A stretch of DNA of 63,303 bases, counting the filler, from Nemertoderma westbladi (Eukaryota > Animalia > Xenacoelomorpha): the NCBI GenBank assembly GCA_032718475.1. It is 3 parts of 3 records of this genome, joined end to end, with 100 filler letters (N's around TTAATTAATTAA, not from the genome) between each part and the next. Parts side by side here need not be neighbours in the genome. Positions count along the whole stretch, not along the records: positions 1 to 20,852 come from JAUCBJ010003897.1; positions 20,953 to 41,411 come from JAUCBJ010002024.1; 1 more part is not named here. One strand, given 5' to 3'. The notes under the pieces were generated by a model. It was given only the letters and a program-made list of their open reading frames with translations. It had not been told where the DNA came from and made no database searches. The translations under genes and the position numbers were made by a program. Shown one piece after another: positions 8,120 through 54,952 of this stretch; position 1 is the first letter of the stretch, and every line of letters starts with the position of its first letter.

Positions 8120-9814
8120 ATGAAGATTGCTGTGATTGGCGCCGGGGCTGCTGGACTGGTAACAGCTAAGTTCATCCTCAACCAACCCGGTTTCAGCGTA
8201 AAAGTATATGAACAGGGTTACAGCGTCGGCGGCACCTGGTGTTACACCGATAATGTCGACCGCCACGGACTTCCTTGCCATTCCAGCATGTACCACAACC
8301 TGATAACCAACCTTCCCAAGGAAGTCATGGCGTTCCCAGACTTCCAATTCCCTTTCGATGGGCCTTCCTTTATACCACACCACGAGGTCGCCTTGTATCT
8401 CCAGAATTACGCGAAACATTTCGGCATTCTTCCGCATATCCAATTCGGAAGGCGAGTTCAACTTGTCGATTTTGTAGATAACAAATCATCGGCGATTCAG
8501 TGGCTGGTCACGACGTCCTTTTTACAACAATCGGAAACCGTCGTAGTGTGCAATCAATGATTACCTAGTCAATCTTCATTTCGTAAAGGTAAAATTTAAA
8601 TTGACAAGATAATAGGGAAATTATGTACAATTTCGTGTTCCGTATACAGGAACTGTCGGCGAATGAATATCTCGCCTCAATGTTAAATTATTCTCAATTG
8701 TTTAGGGAAAGGAGCAGGTGACACTAGCGCGTTATTCTAAACAAAACAATAAACTAAGTCAATAGAACAGGTTACGTACGTTAAATGAATTAAATAAGTT
8801 TTTTTTTTAATTTACAAACTCAATAAATTTTATTTTTCCAATTAATGTGGATTTTGTTCATGAAAAATTACCCATTACGAAATTGGAGAAACGAATATGT
8901 CTAGGTAATCCATTGAGACACAGATTCCAACCACTCAAACCGACGAAACGGAAACATTCGATGCCGTTGTCATAGCAAACGGACACTTCCAAAAACCATA
9001 TTACGCAAAGATTCAAGGTTTATCTAGTTTCCCAGGCGCCGTTACCCATTCCCATGACTACCGTCGTCCGGAGACCTACCGCGACCAGCGGGTGCTGGTG
9101 TTCGGGGCCGGAGCTTCCGGTATAGATATCGCAGTCGACGTTTGTTCCCAGGCAACGCGAGTCGTCCTCGCCAACGCGGAGCCCTACCCCTGGAAACCGT
9201 TGCCGAGCAACTGCGAACGCGCTGGAAACATTGCCGTTATCACCGGAAATGAGGTTGAATTCGTCGATGGATCTAAATACCATCCCGACTCGATAATTGT
9301 GTGTTCCGGATACGATTACGATTTCCCATTTTTATCCTCGAGATGCCAAGTTATTGTAGAAGATAAGAGAGTAATGCCGTTATATAAACAAGTGATACAC
9401 GTGGACAGACCCACACTGTGTCTGATTGGCCTTTGTAGTTACACGTGCCCATTCCCAATGTTCCATTGTCAGTCTCAATTCATTGTTAACTCGTTAAGTG
9501 GCGCTATGAAGCTTCCTTCTCGGGCCGATATGATGTCGGATACTGAAAAGGACTTTCAATGGAGACTGTCTATAGGTATGCGACCACGGTACGCCCACCG
9601 CATGGGGGGATTACAATGGGCGTACCACAAGGAATTAGCTAGGGAAGGAGGGTTCCCTTGTCTTCCTAAAAGCTACGAGGTCTTATACGAACAGAATAGC
9701 AATAAACGGAAGGAAAATGTTCGCACATATCGGAATTATAATTACAGTTTCCATGGAGATGGATGGGTAAAAAGAGACGATATAGAGCAAGAAGTTTGGG
9801 ACAGCAGTAAATAG
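8120..9814 (+). CDS. Flavin-containing monooxygenase; probable join(8120..8545,8924..9814), 438 aa
   Basis: FAD-binding GAGAAG, GGTW, FMO signature FPGAVTHSHDYR and NADPH-binding GAGASG. Both parts are in the same frame and are separated by a GT..AG insert. Confidence 0.85.
8546..8923. mobile_element. 378-bp TIR element occupying the putative FMO intron
   Basis: Left GTGTGCAATCAATGATTACCTAGTCA; right end read as reverse complement CTGTGTCTCAATGGATTACCTAGACA; subterminal ATTTCGTAA..GGTAA is also inverted. Confidence 0.75.
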
Positions 9815-10887: not shown

Positions 10888-12801
10888 TTATTGGCAAATA
10901 AATTCAGCGACTAATTTGTTAAACTCTTTGGCATATCGGAGGTGCAGATTATGTTTCCCATCGGGGAACCTAACCACTCTACTGTCCGGTATACACCTCG
11001 CAATATCATCCACGTTACCGTGGGGTATCATCGCGTCTTTATCTCCGTGAATAACTAAAGTTTTACTCGATATAGCTGCGAGCTCATTCTCAGTGATAAT
11101 ATCAGAGCCATAACCATGGTAACCACAAAGAGCGTCCAACCACATCTTATTAAACCCTTCCTCTCCATACATATCCACCAAAGGTTTTCTCATTTTTTCA
11201 CTCCATTTGTTCGTATCCTTAATTTTCTCGAGAATCTCGAAATCCTCACGAGTGAACCGGATTATGGATCCCCAGACAACTAGTCTGTCTACCATCTCGG
11301 GGTACTTGGAGGCCAGTAGCATGGCGATCTGGCCCCCGTCGGACCAGCCCAGCACGTGGGCGGGTTCCCATCGCAATGCGGATATCACCCCGGCAACGTC
11401 GGCGGCGTCCCGTAAGAAGAAACCGGGAGAGAAGTCGCGCTCCGGGGGTCTCGTTCTACCGTAGCCACGGAGGTCCACGGAGGCGATGGTGAAGGTGGCT
11501 GGGTCGAAACCGCCGTCCAGTTGGGGGGCGAAATCCGATCTATTTGTGGTGGGGGGGTTGGTGGACTTAGTACTACTAGTGTAGGGGTGGACTTAGTACA
11601 GTGTAGGGGTGGACTTAGTGTAGGGGTGGACTTAGTACTAGTGTAGGGGTGGACTTATTACTAGTGTAGGGGTGCAGTATTAGTAGGGGTGCAGTATTAG
11701 TGTAGGGGTGGACTTAGTACTAGTGTAGGGGTGGACTTAGTACTAGTGTAGGGGTGTAGTATTAGTGTAGGGGTGGACTTAGTACTAGTGTAGGGGTATG
11801 TGGAATCACTGGAGTGAGGGGCGTTCCTGCAAAAAGCGTGCAAAAATCGCAACACGTGCGCGGTAAATGTGCGCCGAATTTAAATAAAAGTGCGCGGAAT
11901 TGTGAGACAAACATAAAAGTGCGTGGTAATCTGTGTAAATTCTGAACAAAAGCGCGTGGATGAGATAAAAACAGTTAAAACCAGTATAAAGTCCACATAA
12001 AGTGAGAAAAATCAAGATTTCAAAAATAAATTAAAATAATAAAAATAATTTTTTTTATTTCATCGTGTTAAAATGTATCTTATCGCTTCATTATTATTTA
12101 CATAATATACGATACTGGTGTACTGGTAACTTATACAGTTATAATACATACCGGTACTTCAAACTAAAGTAAACAAAGGTTAACCAAATTACTAGTAAAA
12201 GCAAATAGTAAAAATCGACAAGAATGTCTAATTTTTTATAAAATATCGAATCTGATATTTTATCATGAGTATTGATGAAGATATTTTCCATGTATTGATT
12301 GTAACTTCTGAACTTATGTTTAATTGTGTGATCAACCTATTCAACATTCAAAGTCTACAATGTTTATTTTTTGGTGTATGCGCGGTATTTTGTCCGATAT
12401 TGTGCGAATTGGAGGTACAGAATTTACAATATGACAGTAACTACGTCTGTAAGAAGTAACCCAAATAAACGTACAGTAGGCCTACTTTTCAAACACCATA
12501 CAGCCATACAGCAATTGTCATTATAGGCCCTAACCATAACAGCATAACGTCCAGTAAATAATGACAACATATTCCCATTCTGGAGAATGTGGTCTTACCT
12601 TGTATAACCTAACATGCCAGGAAGGCATATCACTTTCTTGGGTCCGTTTCCAAATATTTCGTAATGAAATTCCAAATCATTTACTTTAACGAACTTTGAC
12701 ACCGACTTAGTTGAACTAAATCGAGTTAATAGATGCATGGGATTATAGCCAAGCCCTCTCAAAAGTCTAGGAGATGAAAATAGGAACTTTCGCAGCACCA
12801 T
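10888..12801 (-). CDS. bphl: Valacyclovir hydrolase / biphenyl hydrolase-like alpha/beta hydrolase; complement(join(10888..11539,12599..12801))
   Basis: LPGMLG..RSDFAPQL, DLRGYGRTRPPERDF, GWSDGG nucleophile, HGDKD and GKHNLHLRYA. Donor AG|GTAAGA at 12598 and acceptor ATAG| at 11540 give an in-frame join. N-terminus resembles a mitochondrial presequence. Confidence 0.9.
11561..11796. repeat. ~23-bp minisatellite in the BPHL intron
   Basis: GTGGACTTAGTACTAGTGTAGGG, about 10 imperfect copies. Confidence 0.9.
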
Positions 12802-14650: not shown

Positions 14651-15274
14651 ATATCGTTGAGTTTCAGTTTCGGCCAATCAGAGCGTCCCATTCGTAGACC
14701 ACTTGCCCCTTCGTTATGAAAATTTGCGAGTGACCTTACATTTGGCCTATGTATATATGTTCAAAATATTAAGAAAATCGTTAGTCACTCACTCACCCAC
14801 CAACTCAGTCACTCACTGACCCATTGTCAACACGGTTTTATTTCTAGGATTCCTTTCAGAAAGTAACCAGGCAATTCCTAATTACAGTATTAATTACATG
14901 GGAAAAAAAAGTAGAACTTATTTATGTAATTTAAACTGTGTCAAGGCTTTTACGAGAGGCTAACCCCACATCCGCCGCTACGTGAGTCTGTCTGTAACTC
15001 TTATGAGTGCTATGAAGTGCTTATGAGTGCTTATGAAGGCTATCAAGTGCCTTGGGGTACCTGCCGCATAGCAGGAACACTCACGAAAGTTTATGTATAT
15101 ATATATTATCTAAACAGCAATTGAGATAAAATGATTCACAGATTCAGTTATTATATATAATATCGTTAGTATAATTTAAGTATAATATATCTGGTCTGAA
15201 TGTACAATCAATCACTGTAAGTATATAGCTTCGGCACTTAAAAACTGCTTTGAGGGAATAAAGTGACAGTTACG

Positions 15275-15998
15275 TGTAAACCGTTCCGTTATGTTGTGTT
15301 GTTGGCGGGCAAATGTGTGTGTGACTTATATATATTACAGGTAGGACACTATGTTGGATTTAGGGCGTGGTAAGCGCACAGTTCACTCGTGCTGCATACA
15401 TAGCATTAGTAGATTATAGTTACTAGTTGTGGAATAATATTGCAGTACTATGGACGCACACACTCGCACTAAATGAACCGAATCTATTACAGACAGGGCG
15501 CAGTCAGAACTAACCGTGTGGAAATCGAGTTGGTTTAATTTCTGGTCTTGTATATTCATCAACAAGGTAAAGCAATAATAGTAACTAATAATAAATGCAC
15601 GCAATAAGCAAGATACAATGCATGCAACAAGTTATTGATGCAATACAGCAAGCTACAATGCATGCAGCAAGGTGAAATATCACGAGTCCTGCTAGTTACA
15701 TGACTCGTAACGGGCTTAATATGTTGTTAGATTATGCCTGGAAACAATGGGACGAATATCGACTATATAAACACTGTGAGAATAGAACAGCCAATAGAGC
15801 GCAAGAATACCTGTGCCGGTAGTTACCAATGAGAGTTCAGCACTACCATATCTGCTGCTAGGCAACATATAAACAAGATTCATGGTGGTATACAATATGA
15901 GTTAGGCATAAATATCATACGCACAGAGATTGAATGATTCTTTGATAAAAATATAAGATTTCGATATGCAGTTAGTGTGTGCAGCAAAACCGCTCCCT
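15275..15998 (-). mobile_element. Putative PPT (15990-15998) and 3' LTR of element D of the unrecognised family
   Basis: On the minus strand AGGGAGCGG follows the last accessory ORF, the same GGGAGCGG as at 31371. Two ATTGG boxes (about 15791 and 15826) and TTTATATA (about 15768) follow. Candidate end ...TTTACA at 15275. Confidence 0.45.
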
Positions 15999-16504
15999 AA
16001 AATTACGTACAAGTTCAACAGGACAGAGGACATATATAGGGATATACATAAAGGGATATACAATCTTTTAACGGTTAAGGGCAACGTCGATATTGGATAC
16101 TTACTACGTACGATTAAATGCGATAAACTATCTATCTAAATAATTAAATTAAATTAATTAAGGGTAGATCAACTTCCTCATATAAAATAATAAAGTTCGT
16201 TGAGTCTCTTCCGGTAGGACTAAATAAGCATTAAACGACCTTTCAAATAACATTAGAGTTTGATATATTTACAAATATGGTAGGTTGGTAAACTAATCGA
16301 CGTAAGTAGGTAAATATTGAGTCATATTATCCTTCGAATATAAAATACATAAATTTGACTAATATATCGAATTTCACTCTTATAATAAGAAATACATATT
16401 GTTTATTATTTACAAATATGATAGTTTTATAACGTACTTAATGGTTGATGAACGAGTACAGTGATTTTATACAGATTGACAGGCTAACTAATAGTAATCT
16501 TATA

Positions 16505-19500
16505 TTATCGCTTTCGCTTCGGATGTTTGGGGGTATTTCGCATAAAGAGTCGTTTACTCTTCTTCGCAGGCGTTTGGGGCGCAGGTAACGTCAGGTCGTC
16601 GCTTGAAAGTGTCTCATTGGGACCCAGGTGTATACCTACCGCATCTGGTGTCGGTGAAATCGGTTGGTCGGTGTATGTCCCGGTGGAGGTGCCGGGCAAG
16701 GACAGGAACTCAACCGGTCTCGTTGCGCCCGAGTCGACAGCCGGTCAACGGATCTCTAGTCCTGAAGTAGCAGCTAAGCGCTTCCGCACAGCAGCCTGCA
16801 CTGGTCCAGAGGGGACGGTTTGGGTAGCGACACCAAATGGGGGCTGCTTGCTGAGGAAAATTCTCGGAGGCACAGCGTGGAGAACTGGTTGTTCACGTTG
16901 AGCGTGTTTGCTGAAAACTCGATACTGTGGGAGCAGCTCGGGATGTCCTTCCAGGAAGTGTGAACCATAGAATGTAGAGTCACTAATAAACTTTATTATA
17001 TCGTAGGACGTTGCGCGCTCTGGGTGTATCTCGCGAAGGAAGCGTCGTACGAAGCTGGTGTTTGTGCAGGAAGCTACACGGTTGAGGAGCTCGTAACTCG
17101 GTAGCCAAGCACGCTGAACATCTGTTGCGCAGGTGAAGGGGGCAACCATGTATACTCTGAGGTGAGCTTTAGGTGCGGCGTATTGGGACGTGGTGATCGC
17201 GTTGAGATCTGCGCATCCTTCCCACGATCGAATGTATCGTGTGACACTTGTTTCATCTTCTATCTCGATGTTGGGACCAAAATGGCAGTTTGGACTACTA
17301 ACTGTGTCCCTTGAGTTGGCAACGCTCGCACTGGGTAGCAAAGGCTAGACAGGAAAAGAAGATGTGATCATCGTTAACACGGCAGTAGGGACAATAGAGT
17401 TTGATGTGACTATCGGTGAGGCGCTCACAAAGAACTCCAGGTTGGGTGGGAGCCTTGTGTGTGCGAAGACCGCAATGCGCACAACGGACATGTTTGCGAA
17501 ATAACGCATAACGGAAACCTCGAACCGTGAGCCACTCGGTCCCGCTATACCAGTCGATTAAAGCGGACTCATTGTCAGGGGCAGGCACGACAGTGGTAGC
17601 TTCTGAGGTCGCTTCTAGATGGATTGGTTCCTCCGCTTGGTCGGGGGCATCCATAATATCAGTCTGTATTTGTCCAACCGAGAAGCCAGGTTTGATAATG
17701 GGTCTCTCAATCACCGATTGATGTAGATTTGAAATACATACGTCTCGGAATATGGCAAAGCCGCCGCTGGCTAGCTCATCCGCTGCGGAGCGACGTAACT
17801 CTTGCTGAGACAGTAACTTCACGCGAAACTGACTGTCAATGTTGGCTAAGAGGGTCAGGAAATGCCGAAAGCATTCAAAGTTCAGGAATTTACCGAGTTC
17901 ATTGAGTTTGGCAAGTTGTGTTCCCAACAACAACGGGTGCACTCTCAACATACGGCTACAGACATCCGCAAGCCATCCTGATAGGGCTTGGTTTTCGAAT
18001 ATGAGGTATATTGCTAACGAAGGGCGCAAGGGGATGCTCATGAAGCTATATACAGCACTGATATATGGCTGAACCGAGTTTATAAATAGATTCGTCTAAG
18101 AGAATGTCCAATACGGGTTGTGGCAATAAAGCTGAGTCTATTCCCATGGCCGGGTGTCGATTCGTGTCGTTGATGTAAGCCTTTGATTTAACAAACTGTT
18201 GGTGTCTAGCATGGCATTGATAGGCGGTCAAGGCTAGGAAAACGCTGTTGGTATCACGACAAGTACACTTAAAAACATGTGTGGCTCCAGTGAGGCTGCG
18301 GATATGAATCAACTGAGTTGAACCGAGCTCATGATCTGGCACTGAGCCTTCATTGTCATAAATCATAACGCCTTAGCTGTGAATAGCATTGACTGTATGC
18401 AACCATTCAGCGTTAGCCACTTCGGTGGTCAGTTCTACAGGTTTCCATAGAGTATCTAACGAACCGGGTTCTCCACACGCTATTCTTATGGATTCTTAGC
18501 TAGGCATCTCATTAGTATTTACATTTGGTTCGATATATTTCAAATCATCCTCTAGGAAGGTTACATCTAAGTTCCAGTGTACGAGGCAATGGTAATCCAT
18601 AAATGTCACCAAGTTAAAGGATGGGCGTGGGCTGGCTTCTATTGTTACTATGTTATAAGGTTTCTTAAATGAGTTTAATTTCACCAAATAATCCAAATGT
18701 TGATGCAAAGCCTACAGTTCTACGAGGTCCAAGGGGTTCACCCATGGTGAGAATCGCATATCCCATCCAGGGTGTTCTGGTTGTATGACGTAGTATCGTT
18801 TAAGCATCACAAACCAAGGATGGTCTTTAATTCCGTAGAAGGGAAGGATGATGAGCTACATTTATTTCGTGGACCTTTTCCCGAATTACGTCAGCTCGAG
18901 TGCGAGAAGGGGGAACTAATTCACCATCTACACATAACGGTTCCAAACGTAATGGCGTCTTTAACATCGGAACATCGGCAATAGCACAAGTGGTTTCAGT
19001 GCCCTGTCGAAGATGCACGGTTGCTTGGTGCCAAAGACCTTGTGCTGCATGGAAGGGTGAACGTAACGTTTAGGTTGAAAACCTTCCATCAATGATTGGA
19101 CATAAGGTTGGCGGTAGATGGTGAGGTCGGCATTCTCCAGCGCTATCACTTCTTCCTCACATCGTTCTTTCTCTCTAGCCTCAGCTTGGAGATTGGAGAA
19201 GAAATCTGAGAAGGATTGTATGTCTCCTTCGGCGATACGAGCTCTCAATGTATTAATTTCTGGTCTGGTTGGAATGCAGTGTTGTACATGGCCTCCAACA
19301 AAGCGAGTTCTGTTAACAAGGTACCGGATGGAGTCGTGGATAGGCGCGCATGGATACCGGCTAAACTAGACGACATTATCAACTGAGTGGTTTCATCGTG
19401 GGGGGTATGACTACACCTGGTGTCAACCGTTCACCTGGCATCACGGATCGGGATGTCCCAACTTCTCTTCCGAGTCCGGATGGAACTAAGAAGGTTATCA

Positions 19501-20413
19501 CCGGTTCCTCTTCAGGGATCAGCTGTTCCGGTAGGATCATGTCTCAGTATTCTGAGTAATCCTCATCTAAAGGGCCGAAATCCTGGGGAAGAACTGGAGA
19601 TGGTTGAACTTTAGGAGCCGGGGGTTGCACTGAAAATTGAAGGACGTCAATGGGTAAACGCTCCATTTTACGTAATTTCTTTAAGGCTCGTTCATCCACA
19701 ATGAATAAATCGCGCTCGTATCCTCCATACGTGAAACGTGTATAACTGTGTTTAGCGCAACGTTCACGGGGGTGATTGACCAGTCGGCCCTTTCATGCAT
19801 GGTCATCATGGTTTACTTGTTGGTTAGGGTGTGGACAGTCGTCACAGTAATACAATAATTTAAAGTTCTGGAGACTTACGTGTGGAGTTTGGGAACCAGT
19901 TTTGCAATACTCCGCCATAGCGTCGAAATGATCCGGCAAAACGGGTAAAGGTCTAGCTGAGGTTAGGTACATCATCGTATGGTACAAACGCTTGAGTTGC
20001 GCTATTGGATAGGGATGGATGCCTTTGGGGTAATGAGTTTGCTGCCACATTCAAATACATTTCTCTGAGGAAGGTAATTAAATCCTCAAATCTAGCCGCG
20101 TTGTCACTAGCTTCCGCATCGTTCGCTAACATGGCGTCCCAAATCACATCTACCTTATCCATCTGGGCGGTATTCTCTCGTTGTCTTCGTACATGATAGC
20201 GCCACATTTCCATATCTTGTCGCTCATGAACGTTTTCGGAGTATATGAGGTCACTTGGATGTCCGGATATAACGAATGGTTTGTATGATCCATCAATATT
20301 GGTGTATCTGTTCATGAAGGCACGATAGTGAAGTCGTTCTGAAGATATTCCTCTGAAAGTTGTTGTCACTGCGTTTTGATATTGTCCATTGAATCGTCTT
20401 TAAAAGTATCCAT
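16505..20413 (-). pseudogene. ~3.9-kb degenerate accessory ORF region of element D (unknown proteins, Cys/His clusters, basic C-terminus)
   Basis: Contiguous minus-strand coding-like frames broken by stops and frameshifts. CxxC clusters (CDDCPH; CAHC..CPYC..CERC); ends PKHPKRKR*. Segment 18690-19280 is homologous to 30320-30950. Confidence 0.65.
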
Positions 20414-20500
20414 TATTGTTATTGTAAATAAGCAAATATATTAATAATCCAGCAGAAGTGAACCAATGACTCGATAATTATTATAGTTATTTGAGTTCAT

Positions 20501-20697
20501 ATAGGGTCGACAGTGGCAAGCCGCCCTTTATCCCCAGCCCGACACGGAACCGAGCTGCCCCTGGCCATGTTAGCGCCGCTACGCCTATTCCCTAGCCAAC
20601 ATGTGTGGAAGAACGGGTGGAAGACGAAGCGGCTAATGCGCAGGAAAAGCTCGAGGCCGGTCTCTCCGAGGGCTATTCGTCAGGGTATATCGACTAT
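20501..20697 (-). ncRNA. ~200-nt rod-like RNA structure upstream of the accessory ORFs
   Basis: Nested helices GTCGA/TCGAC, GCCCT/AGGGC, CGAGCT/AGCTCG, CCTG/CAGG, TTAGC/GCTAA, CGCT/AGCG and TTCC/GGAA. Mismatches become G-U pairs on the minus strand. Confidence 0.6.
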
Positions 20698-20852
20698 TGT
20701 AGTGCGACTGAAATTAGTCTGCAGTAGAGTTTCACAGTAAACACACAGAGGATAGCTGTTATTTGTACTATCACGCAAACTAGCACACCCAATGTCACAA
20801 CTCGCACAAATGTCTGTTACAAACTTACTATTTCCCGAATGTTGATATTTTA

Positions 20853-20952
20853 NNNNNNNNNNNNNNNNNNNNNNNNNNNNNNNNNNNNNNNNNNNNTTAA
20901 TTAATTAANNNNNNNNNNNNNNNNNNNNNNNNNNNNNNNNNNNNNNNNNNNN
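20853..20952. other. Artificial contig linker
   Basis: N-run with a central TTAATTAATTAA all-frame stop spacer. Confidence 0.98.
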
Positions 20953-22724
20953 TCTATCACCGAAGGGGTGATTTCAAGAACAGACCTACTTATTTCAGGC
21001 TCATCTACTATAGTAGGGAGTCTTTCTATTTTAATTATTTGGTCTGTGGGCTCTGTACTACCTAAGTTGGTGTTATTTAGTTGCCTTCTAACAGCTGGAG
21101 GCAAATCAGGCAATTTCTGACGGTGGAATGTTCTTTTATGTCTGCTTAGGCGAGATCGATTTCTTCCGCCTTCAGTGTCGGTGGTATCGCCTTCCTCAGA
21201 TGATGTATACCCCTGTCTCTTGGGAGTAGATCGACTCATCATCTGCATATTGCTCGCTGTTAACTGTTTATTGAAGTTGTCTTGCTTCTCTTGAAGAATT
21301 TCCAACTCTAGTTGGGTTGCCTCTTCAGATGCCCTCCGTTCGGCTTCTACCACTGCCTCTGCTGTTGCCAATGCCGCTTTTCTTTCCGCTTCGGCCTCTG
21401 CCACTGCCGATGCCGCTTTCCTCTCCGCTTCGGCCTCTGCCACTGCCACTGCCACTGCCGCTTTTCTTTCCGCTTCTGCCGCTGCTACTGCTGCTGCCGC
21501 TTTTCTTTCCGCTTCTGCCTCTGCCACTGCTGCTGCCACTGCCGCTGTCTTTCTATCTTCTATACGTTTTTTCTTTACTTGTTCTTCTCGTTCTCTAGCG
21601 ATGCGGAGTTGTTCATCGAATTTAGCTTGGTTCGCCGCTAACCTATCCACATCAATTGCATCCAACACACGCTGGGCTCCTTCACTATTAGGGCTAAGCC
21701 CATCTAGTCTTCTCCGCAACTCTTCATCACCTACGAAACGCTGATAGTCTGACAGATAGATGTCAATGGCATCCCTCTTATGCGGTTTTTCTGCCGTCGC
21801 TTCACTTTCCACTTGGGAAAAAGTAGCGTCTGTTGATTCTCCATGGGTTGAGCGCTCCTCCAACTGAGCTTTCCACTGAGCTGCTCCTTGAACCTGGTGA
21901 CTCACCCGTTGAAACCAAGTCTTCACGGCAACTTGCAACGACGTGTCTTGTCTTCTTTTAGAAGCCTCCTCAAAGGCGGATAAGATTAGCCTAATCCGCA
22001 GAACTCTTTCTCTAACTTGATAAAGCAGCGATCCCTGCTCTTGAGGTCCTTGAGGTTGTTGAAACAGTTGTCTCTCTACTCGCTCCATAGAGCTGAAGAA
22101 TCCCTGTGCGTATCCGGCTGCGGACCTCTTCCATACAGCTGGATCGATGGTTTCCTTGGCTACTCCCATCCGGTGTATGTCTTCCCAGGCAGCTTCTGAT
22201 AAATCAAACGGGAGTCCGGGTCCGGGGAAGTTCCATTGCGACTCGACAATAGACTTCAGTTCTTCACTAGTGTATCCCGCGTAGTTATCTCTAGTTGACC
22301 GTTGACTTCTCGCCCAATCAATCTGGTGTTCTTCCACCGCGATCAATAACCCAGCGAGCACGGCTGCAGGAAGGATGAGAAGGGGATCCGTATAAACCGC
22401 ATCCGTCATCTCTGCTCCGCTCTCGGGTGTCAGCTCTACAGTATCCTCACTACTGGAGCTGCTGGGCCGCTGAGGAATAAGTTCTTGACTAGCGGGTTGT
22501 TGCTGTTCCGCTGCCTTTTGGTCCCGCTTGACCTGAGCTCGAGTGCCTATGATAGACCTACGATGTTGGACCAGCCTAGGTTCTGTTATTACTACTGGAG
22601 GGATGACCTTCCTCACAGTGGGAGGTGAACTAGATTTACGACCAGACGGTTGTACGTCTCTATCTGAGTCGCAGATAGTTACATCTAATAAACTGTCTGA
22701 CAGGTTCTGCTTAGTATCAGACAT
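20953..22724 (-). CDS. ORF1 (Gag-position protein) of element A, open into the gap; coiled-coil with AAVAEAEAERK repeats
   Basis: Intact ~590-codon ORF starting about 580 nt downstream of LTR A in the same sense; no domain recognised. Confidence 0.6.
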
Positions 22725-24140
22725 GACTATGTATACCGTTGAATGTCTACTGCTGTATTACAGTCTGAGTAAGTCTAGTAACTCAGTATTACCTGTTAGC
22801 CTAGTAATTAATTACCGGTACTGCTACTCAGTGTAGCGTGATATATATAATATATTAGAATACCGGTATACTTATAGTATATATAACTATATAAGTATTA
22901 TTACAGACTAGGTTTATCACAGAATACCGGTATAATTTTAGCACAAATGTATATAAATATATAATAGGCCTATCGGAATACCGGTATACAGCTTACAGTT
23001 TGTAGGATATATAATTCTGAAATAGAATTAATTACAAGTACCGGTATAATTCCAGCCTAGATTTATAGAAATAAAGATAATAGGCCTATCGTAAATACCG
23101 GTATATCAATTATTTCAAATAATTGAATTTCTGTTACTTTAGGTTACTTGGTTACGTTACTTACTTTATTACCGTTATTTGAGCAGTAATCCATCTTATA
23201 TTGAGGCCTAATGGTTGTATGGTAGGCCTACGATTTATAAATCGTTAGATTTGATTTATAATATATATATACCCGTTTTAATGGGTTTTGTCAATGTTTG
23301 AAATAAATGTTATTATTTCTGGGGAGTAATCACTACACAAAGCGGTGCGCTTTCAGTGAAGTGTTACGTACAGGACACTAAAACAAATAATACTAATTTA
23401 CCTAAGTTACTTAATACTACAAATTACGTACAATTTGGGTTGAGATTACAATCTCTAAATAAACACAAAATTTTACAAAACACAAATACGAATTTTTAGG
23501 GTAATTTTACAAGAAGTCTACAAACCAGCCTAACAAAGGGTTAGAAAACTGATTATTACAGCGGACAGGGTACTACGGTATTTGAAATAATAAGTAGTAG
23601 TAAATACACTGCGTTGTCTAGATAGGAAAATACCACCGCCTGACGACCTATAGCCGTATCGCTATAGGTTCTACGTTATGTATCACGGAGTGTTCCTACC
23701 TAGAAGTTAATAGAGCTAATCGAATGTGCCTATCAACCACTTTACAACACAAATATAATGCCTACACTAATTATTTTCGGAAAGCACTGTACACTAAACC
23801 CTAAATTAGGTACGAGTACTTGTACAACATATAATCAGTAGTTAAATATACTTGAACAGCTAAAAGAACCACGGCATCTGCTGGAGTGACCGATGCACAA
23901 AATCACCAGTCTTTACCTACGCCAAGCAGCCCGTGTAGTACCGAGGTTAATTTAACTATAGCGGTATGTATAACAAACACAATTACTGTAGGAACAAACT
24001 TGGGGACTTGAATGTTGCGAATAATCGCATAAACTCTGAATAATAAATATTACGCTACGCGTACAAACTACTCAAACAAAATACAGACCGAACACTGACA
24101 GACTACTATCAAGCCTAAACAAACTACGGTATATGCAGAC

Positions 24141-24539
24141 TCCGAAATGATTAGGGAGTATGCGCTCTAACCCAGTAGTGCGACTTATTCTTTAGTTGGG
24201 GGTTTACCTTACAGCGTTGCTGACCCTACTTCCTAACCGTACTTAATCGGACAGATGATCTACACACGCGGCAATCCGTTCAGACCTAATAACAGCCAGA
24301 CAACTATCCAGCCTACAAATTATCTAAATAAAATTATACGCTACCCGTACAGACTTACACAAACAAAGTACAGACTAAACGATGGCAGACCACTCTCAAG
24401 CCTAAATGAACCACAGGACATGCAGACTCCGAAATGATTAGGGAGTATGCGCTCTAACCCAGTAGTGCGACTTATTCTTTAGTTGGGGGATTACCTTACA
24501 GCGTTGGCTGCCCCTACTTCCTAACCGTACTTAATCGGA
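24141..24539 (-). ncRNA. Duplicated ~112-nt structured module in LTR A (24141-24251 and 24428-24539)
   Basis: Helices UCCGA/UCGGA, GUUAGG/CCUAAU and CGCaCUA/UAGaGCG covary with the LTR B copies. Confidence 0.7.
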
Positions 24540-24882
24540 CAAGTGCTCTACACACACTGTAATCCGTTCAGACTTAACAGCAATCAGACAACAGCTCAGC
24601 CTACAAATTGTCTGTACAATCTGATCAGGTTTACACGCCTTCTGTTCAATACTGGCCTACAAACAAATAAAACTTGACAGAAATAAGTAAAAATCTCAAT
24701 AAAAACCAGGGCTGCAGTCCCTGATTAATTATTAAGGCCTACTGGTATATAACAATCAAAATCGAATAATACTGCTGTAGGTACCGGTCCGGATGATCAG
24801 GCAGTCAGGCCTACTGGTTACCGGTCGACCGGTACTTTCGACTTTATTGCTTACTGCAATAAAGAAGCTATATCCTTTAATG

Positions 24883-25047
24883 TTCGCGCTTTCAGACCTT
24901 TGGCAGTTTAACCCACCAAATTAAGATGTCTTCTAGATATTAAATCTGCTTTTAGTCTATGACAAATATTTGATTCACTACACTAGTCGAAACCAATCCG
25001 TGCGCGACCATTCACCCGCTGGATATTCCCGGGAGATTGGGTTCGAC
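24883..25047 (-). ncRNA. Double-pseudoknot-like RNA domain in LTR A (homologues at 27714-27890 minus and 32368-32533 plus)
   Basis: Three-way covariation CCAAUC/GAUUGG, UCAGCC/GGCUGA, CCAGUC/GACUGG; conserved CGCGC/GCGCG long-range complementarity. Confidence 0.7.
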
Positions 25048-26141
25048 GGTTTAATTTTTATTGCTATGTAAGCCTAATGTATTATTCGACTGACAGTATT
25101 ATATAATCTCTGACAATATTATTCACCTTCGGTAATATTAACAGTTCCTTTAGGACGTGGCGCTTTATCTATATAAACAGAGTTATGACTTAAACTACTC
25201 ACAACGATATGGCTTAATTATAATTCACATATATGGCGCATTCTTTAGGAATTGCTTCTTTAACAGACTCACTCATACACAATGCTGCACAATACTGCAC
25301 ACTAATCTGCCAATCTTCACTGATTTTAGTCACATATAAAAGGAACACAGACTGAATCATGTAGGGTCTATCAAATAACATTAGATTCACTTCAAACCAC
25401 TTTAACATAAGTCACAATCGTTATTGGTAACCTTTCTCTCTTACCTTCGGTATATCAAGAATATTGGGTTTCGGGGTGATTTATCGTTATTCCAAATATA
25501 ATAATTCATCAACCATATTATGAAGAAATGACAGTAAATAGCAGTATAACACAACAACTGAACACTGATTGTTATGAGTTTGCAATGTTTCAGCAGTCAG
25601 GATGTATGATAAGTTATCAGTAGTCATTAGATGCGTTAAAGGATATATGCCCTTTATAATTAAACCTACTAGTGTACGACTAAAAAGCAGTACAGCACAA
25701 AATACTTTCAAGCCGTTCTTTCTTTGGCTCAAGACTGAATGTAAACACTGCACATAGGCATTGCGTCATTTCTCGGAAATTTTCTGTACAAGGAGCCACA
25801 AAAACGCTCTCATTGGCTGACTGAACTGAGAGACGCCGTAGAACAAAGGAAATCAACACGTATGAATGTCAGCTGTTAACCGTAGTCATAGTAACTACTG
25901 TTCAAGAGTAGCTATCACCCCTTTGCGTCACGAATTGCCATAGAATCATAAAATATGCCTTTCACAGTACACATACGGAGGAAATAGGTCTTAGATCCTC
26001 TAAAAACACCGATACAGCAATAATACGGTCTCTTACACTTATTAAATCAACTACAGAGTATTTTAATGTAAAAGATAATAAAAATAACGGGGCAATTCAG
26101 CAAAGGCTTTTACATGGGTTTTTGTCAATATTTGAAATAAA

Positions 26142-28922
26142 TGTTATTATTTCTGGGGGAGTCACTACACAGAAGCTGAACGCCTCTCAGTGAAGTGCTA
26201 TTTATTTGACACTAAAACTGATAATTCTAATTTACCTAAGTTACTTAATACTACCAATTACTTACGATACGGGTGAGATTAATTCTCTAATTGAACACAA
26301 CAAAATATTACGTACGAAATTTTTAGGGTAATTTTACAGGAAGTCTACAAACCAGCCTAACAAAGGGTTAGAATTCTGGTTATTACAACGGACAGGGTAC
26401 TACGGTATTTGAAATAATAAGTAGTAGTAAATATATTGTACTGTCCAGATAGGAAATACCACCGCCTGACGACCTATAACCGTATCGCTATAGGTACTAC
26501 GTTATGTATCACGGATTGTTCCTACCCAGAAGCTAATAGAGCTAACGAATGTGCCTATCAACCACTTTACAACACAAATATCCTGCCTACACTAATTACT
26601 TCGGAAAGCACTGTACACTAAACCCTAAATTAGGTACAAGTACCGGTATAACAAATAATCAGTAGTTAAATATACTTGAACAGTTAAAAGAACCACGGCA
26701 TCTGCTGGAGTGACCAGGGCACAATGTCACCAGTCTTGTCCTACGCCAAGCAGCCCGTGTAGTACCGGGGTTAATTTAACTATAACGGTATGTATAACAA
26801 GCACAATTACTGTAGGAATAAACTTGGGGACATGAATGTTGCGAATAATCGCGTAAACTCTGAATAATAAATATCACGCTACCCGTACAGAATACTCAAA
26901 CAAAATATAAACCAAACGCTGGCAGACTACTATCAAGCCTAAACAAACTACAGTATGTGCAGATTCTGAAACTGTTAGTTAGTATGCGTTCTAACACGGT
27001 AGTACGACTTATTCTTTAAGAGGGGATTGACCTTACCGCATATGGCTGCCCCAACTTACTAACGGCACTTTATCAGACCAACTCTACACACGCAGCAATC
27101 CCTTCAGGCCTAAGAATAGCTAGACAACAATCCAGCCTACAAAATATCTGAGTAATAACTATTACGGTACCTGAACAGACCACACAAACAAACACAGGCC
27201 AAAACACTGGCAGACTACGATCAAGCCTAAATAAACTACAGTATATGCAGATTCTGAAACAGTTAGTTAGTATGCGTTCTAACACGGTAGTACGACTTAT
27301 TCTTTAAGAGGGGATTGACCTTACCGCATATGGCTGCCCCAACTTACTAACGGCACTTGATCAGACAAACTCTACACACGCCGTAATCTCTCTAAACTCA
27401 ACACAGTCAGACAGCAGCTCAGCCTACAATTATCTGAGCAATCTGAGGAGGGTCACACGCCTTCTGCTCAATATTAACTTACTAGGAAATAAAACTGACA
27501 GAAATAGACCTAAGTAAAATCCCAATAAAAACCAGGCGTCCCCGATTTAATATCGAGACCTACCGGTATACAATAATCAAGATCGAATAATACTAATGTA
27601 CTTATACAGCAGTACCGGTTAGGACAGTTGGGCCTACAGACCTACAGAAGTACCGGTTACTACGGTATTTTGCAACCTTATTGCCTACTGCAATAAGATT
27701 ATAAACTGTTACTGTTCGCGCTTTTGTAGACCTTTAGCAGTTTAACCTGCCAAAATTTATATGTCTTTTAGTTACTTAAAACACCTTTAGCATACGACAA
27801 TATTTTATGCTAATAAACAAAACATTACCCGAAGTCAGCCCATGCGCGATCATTCACCCGATGGATCTACACCCGGGAGGCTGAATTCGGTTGCTTAAAT
27901 TTTATTATTGCAGTGTCAGGTTGCAGTGTAAACTTACTGTATTATTCGATTGATCGTTATTAATTAATTTCTGACAGATATTATTGGCTTTCGGGAAATA
28001 TTAACAGTTCCTTTAGGACGTGGCGCTCTATCTATTTAAACAGAACTAAGACTTATACTAAAACGCAACGATACCGCTTATGATTAAAGTATAAAGCGTA
28101 TTCTTTAGGAAATACTTTGTTACCAATCACAATCATACACACTATTCTGCCGACCGTCAGTATATTTGATCACACATAAAGAGAGCAGTAATTGACTCAT
28201 GTAGGGTCTGCTAAATAACATTAGATTCAATACACACCACATTAATATAAATCGCAATTGTTATATATAGCCCGTCTCTCTAACCTGTAGTGTATCAAGA
28301 AAATTGGGAATTTTGGGTGATTTATCCGTATTCTCCAAAGAGCAATATTTCCATCAACAAATAGATACAATTAATAACTGACGGTAAATAACAGTACAAA
28401 CAATATGATTAATAGTGAGTTAATTAGATCAGACAAGTCGATTGAGTCAGATTAGTGAGTTAAGGTAACAGTTTATACTTTCGATAATTTAAGCAGTTTT
28501 ACTAGAGTTCTTCCCAAAAAGCCGGTGTTATGGCGAAAAAATGGGAACACAACAACAGAATCATATAAAATCATATAACTAGAATAACTATACGAGGATA
28601 CCAACTACCCTTATTCCACGAAGCCCCGTTCAACACAGAGGATGAGCATAGAGATAGGAAATTCAGTTCAGTAGCGCTGGGATAGGTCGAAATCAACGCC
28701 CACTCAAATTCTATTGGCCGACACGGACAGCAGTGCAGAGGCAACCTCCCTAAGCTGGCTGGCCGATTAAACTGAGCCCAGATATCTCCATACAGCACAT
28801 CAGCCAATAAGCTGGTAGCTTGCACTATTTTAGTTATAAATCCCTTTGAGAGTATTCTAGCGACCGGGGGGGAACTGGCCAGCAAAGGCAAACGTATCAG
28901 TTATCCCACAAAAGCTTTTACA
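26142..28922 (-). mobile_element. LTR B (~2.8 kb), diverged relative of LTR A
   Basis: Begins TGTAAAAGCTTTTGTGGGATAAC at 28922 with no PPT upstream; ends ...AATAATAACA at 26142. It is followed by 27 nt shared with A and then directly by LTR A. Confidence 0.75.
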
Positions 28923-29399
28923 AAGCCAGCCAGCTGGCTGTAAGGAGACCGTCCATATAGACAAACGTAGTGTTAGTTGGGTCCCTCATCATTCATTATC
29001 ATCAACTCCCTCCCATCTAACATAGCAGTGAGTAACCTTATAGATTATTGTCATAGGATTCACTGGGAAGAGGTATTCATCTGGTGGGGTAATACATTAT
29101 ACAAACTTACAGTTTTGATGTTTGATTACTGTCTGGGTTACAGGGTTAGAGTGAGATAGTAATCAATTTGGCAATAACATACTTCTCTGCAGTTTGGGCT
29201 ATCCATTCAATAAATAGTAGTAGCTTACTAGGCCCACATGAGTACCAGCAGCTGGTGTTTCTATCGTTGAGTTGATGGCAATTATCGTGTTTTCATTTTC
29301 GCTCACTCATGGTACTGGTTTGAGGGGCAGGTTCGTTTAAAGTCAGCTTGCTGGCTTTCTAGTTCTACTGTAACTGTTGATTATAAAATATGAATTTTC

Positions 29400-29939
29400 T
29401 CACTTTGCATTTTTAAATTTTTTTTAGACTTTGAAGTCCTAAGGCTTCATTAAAAATTAGTATGGAGCCGCGAAATTTGGCATGCAAGCTAGTGTAGTAC
29501 AGATAATAAATTTTGACTGGTAGTTTTTCTTAAAATCCATTCAAACCCGTTTTGGTGCAAATTTTGTGAAAAATATGATGATAATTTTTCATGACGTCAT
29601 CATTTTTGCTTAAGAGTTCTAACAAAATGGAATTTCAAAATTTCGCCAGTCAGAATTAACGATATCCCAAAACTGGCCATTTTGGAGGCGATTTCACTTA
29701 AATTGGCCTATCCAATCAAAAATCCTTAGCGTTTTTTCTAAAAATTCTAGAATCTGCGATTGCTGCTGAAAGGCAGTATAAAAATGGGCCTTTTTAGTCA
29801 GAATCTCTCCTAAAACCTTTATGTTAAGTATATTATAAGTTACAAGGTCAAATATGAAATTGGTGTTTAATTTTAAATCGATGAAAAAAAAAATGTCGAA
29901 ATAATGTACACCCCCACCCCCCCCCCCTCCCCCCCTTAA
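29400..29939. mobile_element. Possible Kolobok-like non-autonomous DNA transposon fragment
   Basis: Ends in (C)n-TTAA; AT-rich body. The second TIR was not identified. Confidence 0.25.
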
Positions 29940-30183
29940 TGCCACACACTTTTCTTTATTTTTTACTTGAACTTGAACTTTAATAATTCCAATAAAATAT
30001 GGTACGACAGACCCAGCACCAGCACGATAGCAAACACGAAATAAAGTAATATAGATACATTTAATTATTGGGTGAGGATCCGAATTCGAATGAAATCCAC
30101 ATAGTAGCAAGTGCCACTAGTTCGTGGATTTCATGCAAATACTCGAAATTTGAGTTGGACTGCGCCGCGTCAATGATATTTGT

Positions 30184-31301
30184 ATGGAAAATGAGTGAAA
30201 ATAATCTACTCACATGTACAAGATATTTTTAAGTGAAAGATTAGAAGCACAAAAGAAGCTTTCCAAGAAAGACAGATAAACGTAATTTGCAGCAGCAAGT
30301 CCAAGCGGTAAAAGAATTAGCTTTACCTCAGTTCGATAGGGAAATTCAGAATCTCGAGGAAGACACCGAACTTGGACGAACCTACTCTCTGCAAGAGTTT
30401 TTGGACGAACGCTTCCAACGACAAGCGGAGGAAAATCAGCTCGAGGAGAAGCATATCGAGATGGACGAGAGAGAAGAAGCAGCTTTAGCCCAGCCAGAAG
30501 CTCAAATCCTTATGACTGATCTCTATTCCAAAACCATTATTCATCCTTCAATGGTTCCCATTTCGGAGACAAACTCTTCGCCACAGTACAACCCCAACCG
30601 GTTGATATCATCTTAAGATCTAGAGATCTTATCGCTGACGCTCCTATGTTACAACGTCCGTCAATCAACGCCGCTCGTGTCGACGGTATACTCGTTGAAC
30701 CTCCGGACAATTGAGCGGATCATGTCCGTCGTATGGTACACGAGGTCAATCTACGCGTTAGACCTTTGCCAAAATCATTCTATGGGATCAAAGACCATCC
30801 TTATTATGTCAATTTAATTCAATATTATATGGTGAAACCGGAAGATCCTACGCACAGTATAAAGTTTCTACCATTGATAAATCCCGTGGTGACTTGTTCA
30901 TAAACTCGCATCCAGAGCTACAGGAAGTTCATAGACGACTATATGAATATAGAGCCCGAGAACGCGAGTTGGAAAGAACCATCAAACCGAGGAAATTTCT
31001 CACTACTCACGGTCCGCCTACCGCTCTCATGCAAACGACTCGTCAGGGACCAGTAAGAGCTGTCGTCCTGAAACGCGCTCTAAAGGTTGTTCGACCTCGT
31101 TCCACTGAGGATGATATCGATCAACCGGGTACCTCGACCGGCTGATACACCGACCGTCATCCTAAACCTTCCGATGCAATTGTAATGCACCCTTCACCCA
31201 GGAGTTATAGCCCTCCTAGTAAAGTGGCTCGCCCCAAAGAGAAAAGGACTCTTACTAGCCTCAAAAAACTCCTTAAACGCCGTTCACGTAAGAAGGACTA
31301 A
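30184..31301 (+). pseudogene. Degenerate accessory ORF of element C, homologous to the element D protein
   Basis: Translates across stops and frameshifts to ...IIHPSM..IADAPML..VDGILVEP..VHEVN..FYGIKDHPYYV..; basic tail LKKLLKRRSRKKD*. Confidence 0.75.
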
Positions 31302-31370
31302 TAGTTTAGAGTATTTTTATATTTTAGAAACTGTGATTTTTATATTTTATAGACTTAAATCCCATTTTCT

Positions 31371-32533
31371 GGGAGCGGTGTAAAAGCTTTTGCGGACATA
31401 ACAAGTCATTTTCCCGCAATGCGCAGTGTAGGTGCTTTTGCGGACATAACAAGTCATTTTTGCCGCAATGCGCAGAATACTCTAAAATAGTCCTAAATGT
31501 ATTCAACTCCGTGATGGGAAGGAATCAGAGCCCCAATGACGAAATCTATCAGCTGATTCTCTGTGGACGTGGAACTTTTCTTTGTTCTGCCTAGTCAGCC
31601 AATCAGAGCGATTTTCCTCCTTATGTCTGACAGAAGCCTATGGAAACCCGCGCAATGCATTACGGTCTTTGTTTACTATTTTTTGAGCAGCAGAACCGGC
31701 TTGGAATTTTCTGTACTTCTGCGTAGAAGTTTCAGACTTTGGCCTAAACATCTGATGGCTTTGATTATAAGAACGTAAAACTATTAACAATTCAACATTG
31801 CTGCACATGGAACACTGCATAAGTAACACATACTGACTGTTCACCGCATTATTTTGCTTCTGTTATTAATTGTTGTTGTGTTAATGGATATTGGCTGTTA
31901 TATTTGGAGAATACCGATAAATAATCATAAAACCCCCAATCTTCTTGATTACTGAAGGTGAGAGGAACAGGTTTACCGGTAGCAACTGCGACTTACATTA
32001 TAGTGGTTTTTGTGTGAATTAAATGCTATTTCATAATCCCTACATGTGTCAGTTGCGATCCTCCTTATATACGATCAAATTCAGTGACGGTCGGCTGATC
32101 AGTGCGAAATAGTGTGAAGTAGTGTGAAGTCGTGTGAAGTAGTGTGAAGGTTAATAAAGCATCTCCTAAAGAATGCGCTTTTTACGAAACTCTGTGGCCA
32201 TCCAGTTGTGATTAGTATAAGTCATAACTCTGTTTTTATACTTAAAGCGCCACGTCCTAAAGGAACTGTTATTATTTCCCCGAAAGTAAATATATTGTCA
32301 TAGATTATATCGTAACGATCAATCGAATAATACAGTAGGTCTACAACGCAATAATAAGTCAAAGCATCCGAATCCAGTCTCCCTTAACTGTGGGTGATAC
32401 GCCGCGCACGGACTGGCTTCGGCTGATGTAACTTCAGTACACTAGGTAATTGTTATAGGCTAAAGTCGATTTATAAACAAAAGGACAACTAAAATTGGCA
32501 GGTTAAACTGCTAAAGGTCTAAAAGCGCGAACA
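31371..32533 (+). mobile_element. PPT (31371-31378) and 3' LTR C, truncated by a satellite
   Basis: GGGAGCGG|TGTAAAAGCTTTTGCGG; CAGCCAATCAGAGCG box; collinear with the reverse complement of LTRs A and B up to AAAGCGCGAAC. Confidence 0.75.
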
Positions 32534-32534
32534 C

Positions 32535-32984
32535 GTGTGTCCCCAACCGTAGTTGTGTGTCCCCAACCGTAGTTGTGTGTCCCCATCCGTAGTTGTGTGT
32601 CCCCAACCGTAGTTGTGTGTCCCCATCCGTAGTTGTGTGTCCCCAACCGTAGTTGTGTGTCCCCAACCGTAGTTGTGTGTCCCCAACCGTAGTCGTGTGT
32701 CCCCAACCGTAGTTGTGTGTCCCCAACCGTAGTTGTGTGTCCCCAACCGTAGTTGTGTGTCCCCATCCGTAGTTGTGTGTCCCCAACCGTAGTTGTGTGT
32801 CCCCATCCGTAGTTGTGTGTCCCCAACCGTAGTTGTGTGTCCCCAACCGTAGTTGTGTGTCCCCAACCGTAGTTGTGTGTCCCCAAACGTAGTTGTGTGT
32901 CCCCAACCGTAGTTGTGTGTCCCCAACCGTAGTCGTGTGTCCCCAACCGTAGTTGTGTGTCCCCAACCGTAGCTGTGTGACCCC
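32535..32984. repeat. 20-bp tandem repeat, about 22 copies
   Basis: GTGTGTCCCCAACCGTAGTT units. Confidence 0.97.
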
Positions 32985-33443
32985 AGCAGAACATCTAACT
33001 GATCTTGACTTTTCTGATAATCTCGGTTTGTTGTGAAAGACATTTGAGTCACATTGTTTATTAGCAAGAAAAAATTCACCGTAGACCACAACATAACGTT
33101 CACACTGTTCTAACTACACGAAATAAATAATTAATAATTATCTACTCAACCTGAATTTATTATTAAATACATTAAATTAAATACAAATTATTTATTATTA
33201 AGACATTAAATAATATGGTTGACAATTAGTTTCGTTTGAGGTCATTAAGTTTTGCGCAAATTCACAGGATAAATTCTAGTAATTCTATTAGTTGAGAACT
33301 ATATTTTTGAATTGAATTATCAACTAAAACTTGGCCACCACCGCTACTATAACGGTCCAAATTGGTCCAAAAATCAAACATTATTAACTAAAATTAATGT
33401 AATCCACCAACATATGTACATAATTCAATTGCAGTCAGTTGGA

Positions 33444-34177
33444 TTAGGTAACGCTGAGAGATGATTGACATGATTCGCAGACGATGGCGTCCTTGGAGTT
33501 CATAAGATTGCAGTTCGGGCAACGAACAGAGAAACTCGGTTTCTCCACTTTTCCGCAACCTTCGCACTTGTTGCTGCCACTTCCGTTCAAATTCTGGCAA
33601 CCTAAGCACCGCCATTGCCCTTCCACCTGATTGGTTGGCGTCTTGGTAACGTCGAGAGATGCCGCGGCTTCTCGCAGCTGACGCAATGTGGGTGGTCGTT
33701 GTTTGCGCGCCGGTTTGACCGTGGGTTTGGTTTCCATGGGAACCAGACTATGTCCACGCGGTCGCTTGTAGCAACGTCTCGCGGAGGGAGCCACTAATGC
33801 GCACTGACTGCAGTATTGCCGGTTGCAATGTTTACACTTATAGGCCGCGGTGTCTTGGCAGTCTGCCGCGTTGCATTTAGTGTTGGATGTCTGCCGGTTT
33901 CTCCGAGGAAGTGTTTGGTTGCCTTGGCGACCGCCGAGTGGCGGGGAGGTGTTGAGTTCCCAGGGGTCGACGGGCGTCGCCTGGGCGAGGACACGCCGGG
34001 CACGCAACGGGGACTGGTAGGTGTTGGGGTAGGCCGGAGGAGCCGGAGCCGGAGCCGGCTGACGTGTCGACGGACTCCCATTGGTTGATCCATCCTCCGA
34101 ATCAGGCGGTGATTGGCGTAGGACGTCGTAGACTAGTTGTAGTTCATCTTCCAGCGTCTGGATCCGAGAAGCAGAGC
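33444..34177 (-). CDS. Terminal exon encoding a B-box-like Cys/His cluster and two RanBP2/NZF-type zinc fingers
   Basis: WRCLGCQNLNGSGSNKCEGC and VRCPNCNLMNSKDAIVCESC fit C-x2-C-x3-N-x6-C-x2-C; acceptor TTTCTAATTTTCTTCTAG| at 34178. Confidence 0.7.
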
Positions 34178-34606
34178 CTAGAAGAAAATTAGAAACATTC
34201 CTAAAATTTGACGGACGTCCAGAATCCTTGTTCATTTGATCATTCATTCCTTTATTTGAAAAAGGCTCTTTTTTTCACTAATATTTTTAAAATTAGGTTA
34301 ATTAATCTAACTTTTTTTCACTAATTTCCAGAAAATTAGTTGAAAAAAGTATTTTCTTAACTAATCTTTTCAGTTTTTTTTTCTCTATTTTTTAATTTTA
34401 TTAACTAATTTTTACCTTTTTTAACTAATTTTTTACTTTTTTAAACTAATTTTTATTTATTTAATGAACTATTTACTACACAATATAATCAAATTGTTAC
34501 ATATTTTCATATAATTGAGTAAGTTCCTGGTGCATAATGATTATATAATGTAGACCGAGGCTTGTCAGGTAGCTTACTGTACAGCTAGCTATTTAAATTT
34601 ATATTT

Positions 34607-46024: not shown

Positions 46025-46151
46025 ACCACATGTAGTTGTGCGATACAACGATACTGATTTAAATAGTGATTATAAAATGAATCTCTTTACTGATAATTTA
46101 TGAATAGCTGGACCAACATTTACCACAACGGTAGGCCTACCATTGAGTGTG

Positions 46152-48770: not shown

Positions 48771-48781
48771 ATTATTACTAT

Positions 48782-54440: not shown

Positions 54441-54442
54441 CG

Positions 54443-54950: not shown

Positions 54951-54952
54951 AG

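Follow-up and report, generated by a model that had tools for sequence, protein, structure and literature searches.

Self-primed reverse transcription has been shown for the fission-yeast long terminal repeat (LTR) retrotransposon Tf1; for the fungal, vertebrate and plant relatives of Tf1, as well as for the plant element TAR, it is a prediction. In Tf1 the RNA's first 11 bases pair with its primer-binding site (PBS), RNase H cutting between base 11 and base 12 (PMC7175516, PMC4600332). Self-priming is on record in yeasts and other fungi, in vertebrates, and for the plant elements Tcn1 and TAR (PMC6317226, PMC4600332), and transfer RNA (tRNA) sites have been reported in 1151 of 1512 metazoan elements (PMC13524379). 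No invertebrate self-priming family was found in the full-text literature searched, which covers few subscription papers, as judged by the listings and by text of PMC3601003 and PMC6934838. In this work we analysed a stretch of 63,303 nucleotides from Nemertoderma westbladi (assembly GCA_032718475.1), called the window below, which consists of three contigs with N spacers between them (1-20852, 20953-41411 and 41512-63303). It likely holds pieces of four copies, named A, B, C and D, of a large LTR retrotransposon; all positions are coordinates of the whole window. Judged from sequence comparison, this element probably works like a self-priming LTR retrotransposon of the Tf1 type, using the 5' end of its own RNA as primer and a primer site complementary to its own LTR.

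A proposed self-complementary primer site

The 5' LTRs of copies A and B are directly followed by TTAAAGGATATA and GTAACAGTTTATA, respectively, which differ at four letters and one indel in a manual alignment. In both copies the PBS matches the reverse complement of part of the copy's own LTR without mismatch, over 12 nt in A and 13 nt in B, and the partner stretches lie at homologous places, 767 and 765 nt from the LTR end. The corresponding stretch of copy C, which lies 758 nt from the end of its LTR, is a third variant. The published rule for self-priming calls for a complement to the LTR of the same element that is at least 10 nt long and begins within 0-5 nt of the 5' LTR (PMC6317226); the 12 and 13 nt found here start at offset 0. 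This offset gave the longest self-match among 2116 leader anchors in A and 1558 in B, and dinucleotide shuffles reached such a match in 12 of 20,000 cases for A and in one of 20,000 for B. Each PBS matched the LTRs of the other copies over only 4-6 nt at offset 0, and the duplex energies of the own pairs (-11.6 kcal/mol in A, -13.9 in B) compare with -0.5 and -1.7 kcal/mol for the swapped pairs. The primer duplex terminates exactly at the last base of the LTR, which is the geometry required to start minus-strand DNA, and the primers of A and B are contiguous in the DNA, no splice junction being needed.

No TGG, as expected of a tRNA-primed element, was present in the 20 nt following the LTR of A or B (half-tRNA priming was not tested), and a tRNA search found none in the window. 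A Mag-like Gypsy element of the same contig, used as a control, has a TGG primer site and a self-complement of at most 4 nt.

By analogy with Tf1, transcription would start at or just before the complementary stretch, at about LTR position 450-470, and the 5' end of the RNA would fold onto the primer site ~765 nt away. Cleavage where the duplex stops, for which the element's RNase H is the probable enzyme, would free a 3' end, and from this minus-strand DNA would be extended, beginning at the LTR's last base. Plus-strand synthesis would begin at the purine tract GGGAGCGG. The PBS of Tf1 is copied into its complementary DNA (PMC11042837). If every cycle likewise renewed the site from the primer sequence, primer and site would drift together, and this would be why A and B differ at several letters yet each pair perfectly.

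Ends, layout and abundance of the element

Contigs from four read runs (X1, X3, X4 and X5) were mapped to positions 20953-26200 with a likeness of at least 85%; the label of X5 gives a second organism, and that this run represents RNA is a guess only. On these 5.2 kb fell 49,608 of 8,938,268 contigs of X1, 11,673 of 1,581,921 of X3, 345 of 1,901,655 of X4 and 227 of 15,198,257 of X5, all being contig counts and not copy numbers. The element family is very abundant and highly repeated in its host.

A preliminary description of this DNA had proposed three homologous copies with a common start and LTRs of 2.8 kb. The common start was borne out: TGTAAAAGC occurs three times in the window, at 26114 (-), 28922 (-) and 31379 (+), and the alignments gave 79% identity over 2.36 kb between A and B, 72% over 649 bp between C and A, and 69% over 718 bp between C and B. 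The first ~600 bp of the three copies are scarcely alignable (identity 0.42-0.69 per 150 bp), and A-B identity, at 0.57-0.67 there, increases to 0.83-0.93 over the final 900 bp. The length had to be revised. The motif GCGCGAACA is found at 24881 in A, 27713 in B and 32533 in C, and the homology of C ends exactly there. Among the eight X4 pieces listed, one starts at exactly 24881; one of the six loose-end rows listed for X4 lies at 24880 (2 records, median of 255 foreign letters), and depth climbs across this boundary in three of the four runs (X1, X3 and X4). Because of the common GCGCGAACA end, the stop of C and the X4 starts and loose ends, we assign 1234, 1210 and 1155 bp to the LTRs of A, B and C, all three with TGT...ACA termini (Table 1). 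The LTR thus likely ends at GCGCGAACA and measures about 1.2 rather than 2.8 kb.

The purine tract and the reading frame reported before C are indeed there, the tract adjoining the start of C. A 609-nt X5 contig covers the first 595 bases of A, and its upstream 21 letters are identical to those preceding C, from which it follows that A-type sequence also acts as a 3' LTR. A purine tract therefore abuts the 3' LTR both in C and in this A-type copy, which adds support to the proposed layout of LTR, ORF1 (the first open reading frame, ORF), an unseen pol, accessory ORFs, purine tract and LTR.

Several further observations concern the LTRs. A stretch of 26 nt (about 25168-25193, minus strand, coordinates approximate) is invariant in A, B and C amid ~75% identity, and had no match in viral and metagenome contigs. 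All three LTRs hold a splice-donor-like AG/GTRAG, 182-203 nt past the primer stretch (25444 -, 28284 - and 31958 +). If used, this donor could yield an mRNA lacking the primer site and 16 upstream ATGs, or could instead give a subgenomic RNA for the accessory genes. Among the X4 contigs listed, one covers 25647-25953, so that its end coincides with base 1 of the predicted primer of A; this may be due to chance or may mark a branch point at the U3/R border. CGT starts the right flank of C (32534-32536 +) and that of the putative LTR of D (15272-15274 -), but has no counterpart in the left flanks of A and B. A minisatellite of ~20-bp units directly follows the LTR of C (32534-32985 +).

The leader of B breaks at the spot where the homologous leader of A simply runs on. 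B is likely a 5' LTR plus leader interrupted by A, nested insertion being the simplest reading, although the junction of B and A may be an assembly join or chimera. The LTRs had also been called structured, a description that is not generally supported: local folding z-scores along LTR and leader are modest (lowest -3.1 of 22 windows in A and -3.0 of 18 in B), and the conserved part of A and B so described is mostly internal leader. An Rfam search, ribozyme families included, gave two matches with E-values of 1.3 and 1.6, as expected by chance.

The long intact frame noted after A is ORF1, open for 590 codons from the ATG at 22724 up to the contig end and, by its position, likely Gag-like. ORF1 appears frame-constrained in the comparison of copies, with 0 of the 12 indels listed (37 more exist; P 0.007) and with 9 of the 17 substitutions listed (265 more rows) at third positions (P 0.075). 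It contains no CCHC motif and a single Cys in 590 amino acids. Searches among longer proteins only, with no near-length search run, matched ORF1 to 0 of 7993 candidates and the accessory ORF to 0 of 989. For ORF1, the best PDB sequence had an E-value of 0.56 and none of 231 metagenome candidates was confirmed. Pfam (E 0.1) returned 0 families for seven element ORFs, including the first 590 amino acids of ORF1, and 0 for six whole frames read with X at stops; no chromodomain was found in any frame of D, and PHROGs gave 0 matches for four queries. A phmmer search of ORF1 against 1.84 billion proteins returned one match, 24 residues in an unrelated repeat protein, which we rejected. Single-sequence AlphaFold models had predicted local distance difference test (pLDDT) values of 41 and 32 and were unusable. 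ORF1 and the ~4 kb of 3' accessory coding are without relatives in any library searched, in keeping with the earlier statement that the lineage matches no known family.

Copy D, previously presented as a fourth element, does have the accessory protein and the GGGAGCGG tract in common with C. Protein homology between C and D reached E-values of 2e-15 and 4e-6, with further blocks in the same order; C retains two blocks of D, and ~1.8 kb between them is absent from C. The accessory gene reported before is thus real by homology, but it is merely the 3' end of about 4 kb of coding, broken in D. The sequence that follows the tract in D lacks TGTAAAAGC, and its alignment to A, B and C was at chance level (15, 15 and 52 of 200 shuffles scored as high). 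Since this putative LTR cannot be aligned to those of the other copies, the kinship of D rests on its accessory genes and its purine tract alone. An envelope anchor, considered for a hydrophobic stretch at the contig end of D, is doubtful: the frame of this stretch meets a stop after 11 codons, and a different, open frame holds two CxxC pairs.

Table 1. Positions of the element features in the window
Feature	Positions	Strand	Basis or remark
5' LTR of A, 1234 bp, TGT...ACA	24881..26114	-	End backed by end of C, X4 contig start and X4 loose ends
5' LTR of B, 1210 bp	27713..28922	-	Sequence comparison
3' LTR of C, 1155 bp, TGT...ACA, then minisatellite	31379..32533	+	Sequence comparison
PBS position of A, no TGG	24869..24880	-	Exact self-complement
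Predicted self-primer of A (12 nt), pairing with the PBS of A without mismatch	25636..25647	-	Computed
PBS position of B	27700..27712	-	Exact self-complement
Predicted self-primer of B, 13 nt	28465..28477	-	Computed
Leader of A, 2156 nt (2.16 kb), with 290-bp internal duplication (24035-24613) also in B	22725..24880	-	Sequence comparison
First 1598 nt (1.6 kb) of the leader of B, interrupted by the start of A	26115..27712	-	Sequence comparison
Leader arm of predicted 12-bp U5-leader helix (partner 25079-25090), conserved in B	24761..24772	-	Crosses primer helix
Predicted hairpin just before the LTR end, retained in B with changed letters	24899..24920	-	Folding
ORF1, 590 amino acids to contig end, helical, with coiled-coil-like Ala/Glu repeat	20953..22724	-	Translation
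Purine tract GGGAGCGG, after a T-rich run, adjoining LTR C	31371..31378	+	Also before A-type start in X5
Accessory coding remnant of C, 5'-truncated	30245..31303	+	Without ~1.8 kb present in D
Accessory coding of D, ~3.9 kb, broken by stops and frame changes	16501..20413	-	Frame reading
Open stretch of D, 247 amino acids, with three CxxC pairs	17301-18041	-	Frame reading
End of an upstream frame of D, with two CxxC pairs and no stop up to the contig end	20684..20852	-	Frame reading
Purine tract of D, GGGAGCGG after last ORF of D	15990..15997	-	Sequence
Possible 3' LTR of D (candidate), ends TTTACA, without TGT start	15275..15989	-	Sequence

Apart from this family, the window contains the Mag-like Gypsy element (a label taken from the preliminary description; 35920-41411 +), with a 331-bp LTR, a TGG primer site and a gag-pol with reverse transcriptase (RT), RNase H and integrase. 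It has one in-frame stop between RNase H and integrase, and its 3' LTR is cut by the contig end. A 276-amino-acid ORF (33444-34274 -) shows weak zinc-ribbon matches (DZR, RanBP) below the Pfam cut-offs. An ELOVL4-like elongase gene (2708-3694 -) has 51-63% identity to animal ELOVL4, its best match being from an acoel, and it grouped with two acoel sequences in a quick tree of 121 rows (SH-aLRT 91, long branch). The window is thus animal DNA, and its host is likely acoel-like. By their motifs we take 8078-9814 (+) to be a flavin monooxygenase-like gene and 10888-11592 (-) an alpha/beta hydrolase-like gene; these two and the elongase have few or no introns. A retroelement aspartic protease remnant, presumably Pao-like by its motifs, lies at 41512-42366 (+), a broken non-LTR RT with DUF6451 at 46230-47871 (-), and tandem arrays with units of ~60, 64 and 12 bp at 44866-46030, 48781-52743 and 54439-55790.

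Weighing of the alternatives

A number of observations weigh against self-priming from the RNA 5' end or against the boundary on which it depends. Only two 5' junctions, those of A and B, can be tested. In A and C the primer is preceded, at a distance of 10-14 nt, by TATA-like letters, and in B such a run overlaps the primer, which would place the start of transcription downstream of it. Equilibrium folding, with a program that cannot model crossing helices, gave P 0.98 for the primer helix if 30 nt of leader were included and P of at most 0.06 with 150-400 nt; with the longer leader the helix is lost because the predicted U5-leader helix encloses the primer site and crosses it. Only when the crossing arm was blocked did P come back, to 0.98 in A and 0.70 in B, and forcing the primer helix costs 1.0 kcal/mol in A and 7.3 in B. 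In these models the two crossing helices may represent a pseudoknot or a switch, and the 5'-end pairing may not be the helix that forms. As to the boundary, X1, X3 and X5 had no loose end at 24880 among the six rows listed for each (1147 more rows exist), some stretches of the leader reach the depth of the LTR despite the rise, and the end of the C homology could be a chance cut by the minisatellite. Finally, the RT, RNase H and integrase sought by Pfam were absent from the pieces of this family present in the window, and neither an LTR pair of one copy nor a target-site duplication was found there. Every copy is cut by a contig end or a truncation, and A and D leave their contigs where pol would lie. 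With pol presumed between ORF1 and the accessory region, the element would span at least 14 kb.

The same element and boundary could also be read with the complementary stretch upstream of the transcription start and present only in the 3' LTR copy, in which case the pairing would circularise the RNA and priming would depend on cleavage close to the 3' end or on some other mechanism. The position of the TATA-like letters and the success of the local U5-leader helix over the 5'-end helix in folding speak for it, as does the pairing in A, which extends ~10 nt further upstream with G-U pairs. This extension is not retained in B, however, CCAAT boxes lie upstream of the complementary stretch in all three LTRs, inter-copy identity climbs from about this stretch onward, as at a U3/R border, and the stretch lacks AATAAA; we consider this reading unlikely. 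Somewhat easier to entertain, though still not probable, is that the copies are non-autonomous LARD-like derivatives bearing ORF1 and accessory genes without pol and moved by another element, which would be compatible with self-priming. No pol was seen, C is internally deleted relative to D, and both are broken, but A and D run off their contigs at the place of pol, and ORF1 looks frame-constrained.

Two further structures are much harder to reconcile with the data. LTRs of 2.8 kb ending near 23308 and 26142, with B as a solo or tandem LTR, would fit the 2.8-kb alignment of A and B and the AATAACA near the end of both. Yet homology continues for 26-27 bp beyond AATAACA, up to the start of A, no duplication flanks B, these proposed ends have no TGG and a self-complement of at most 7 nt, and the 1.2-kb boundary is where both C and the X4 contigs break off; this version is already contradicted and very improbable. 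The head-to-tail order of B and A recalls split-direct-repeat elements of the Ngaro/DIRS type or the tandem pseudo-LTRs of Penelope-type elements, but the TGT...ACA ends, the abutting purine tract and the mere 79% likeness of A and B do not; nor was a significant Rfam family found, ribozymes included (best E 1.3), or a recombinase or RT domain, which we take to be features of these classes. We give this possibility hardly any credence. A far-reaching version of self-priming, in which these large self-priming LTR retroelements form an undescribed major lineage separate from Gypsy, BEL/Pao and Copia, with capsid and accessory proteins unrelated to catalogued families and a pseudoknotted 765-nt priming domain, that overran acoel-type genomes, is doubtful and would at present be a long shot. 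Self-priming of the Tf1 type as such is the reading we retain.

Comparison with known systems

BEL/Pao elements have TGT...ACA ends, long coiled-coil-rich Gag N-termini and occasional extra 3' ORFs. In the element described here no Pao-type Pfam domain was found in the 590 amino acids available (E 0.1). With the planarian giant Gypsy element Burro/GYPSM1 and the plant Ogre it shares large size, high copy number and accessory ORFs. Burro exceeds 30 kb with its LTRs, and the LTRs of Ogre measure 1.9-6.5 kb (PMC6431247); in invertebrates, too, long LTR elements such as Burro are already known. ORF1 of Burro has an N-terminal retrotrans_gag domain and CCHC knuckles, and MATH, BIR, BCL2 and env domains are also present in Burro (PMC6431247), whereas none of these was found here, including the gag features of Burro. 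The Kuafuorterviruses (Troyka) resemble the element in being animal LTR elements outside the classical superfamilies; they are mostly 5-6 kb long with an RT bearing IADD, VADD or LADD (PMC11673190), whereas the part of copy A up to the contig end already measures 5.2 kb, with no pol included. Odin elements consist of gag and pol only (PMC9040795).

Acoel genomes are reported to be largely LTR-derived, up to about half (PMC9911081), and a fifth of one acoel genome is unclassified (PMC6451197), both sources giving class totals only. If the host is an acoel, the A-D family may belong to this undescribed repeat mass. Tools that demand a tRNA site would miss or mis-trim such an element, which, with its many copies in a natural genome, is a directly testable case of self-priming.

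The closest likeness is to Tf1, Tf2 and Tj1 and the Tf1/sushi chromoviruses, which have no tRNA site and a PBS complementary to their own LTR. Unlike these, the element has a loop of ~765 nt, a 2.2-kb leader, an unrecognisable ORF1 and at least 4 kb of 3' accessory coding. An abundant invertebrate family with a co-varying primer and PBS, a ~765-nt loop and a crossing helix would widen both the known hosts and the RNA geometries of tRNA-free priming.

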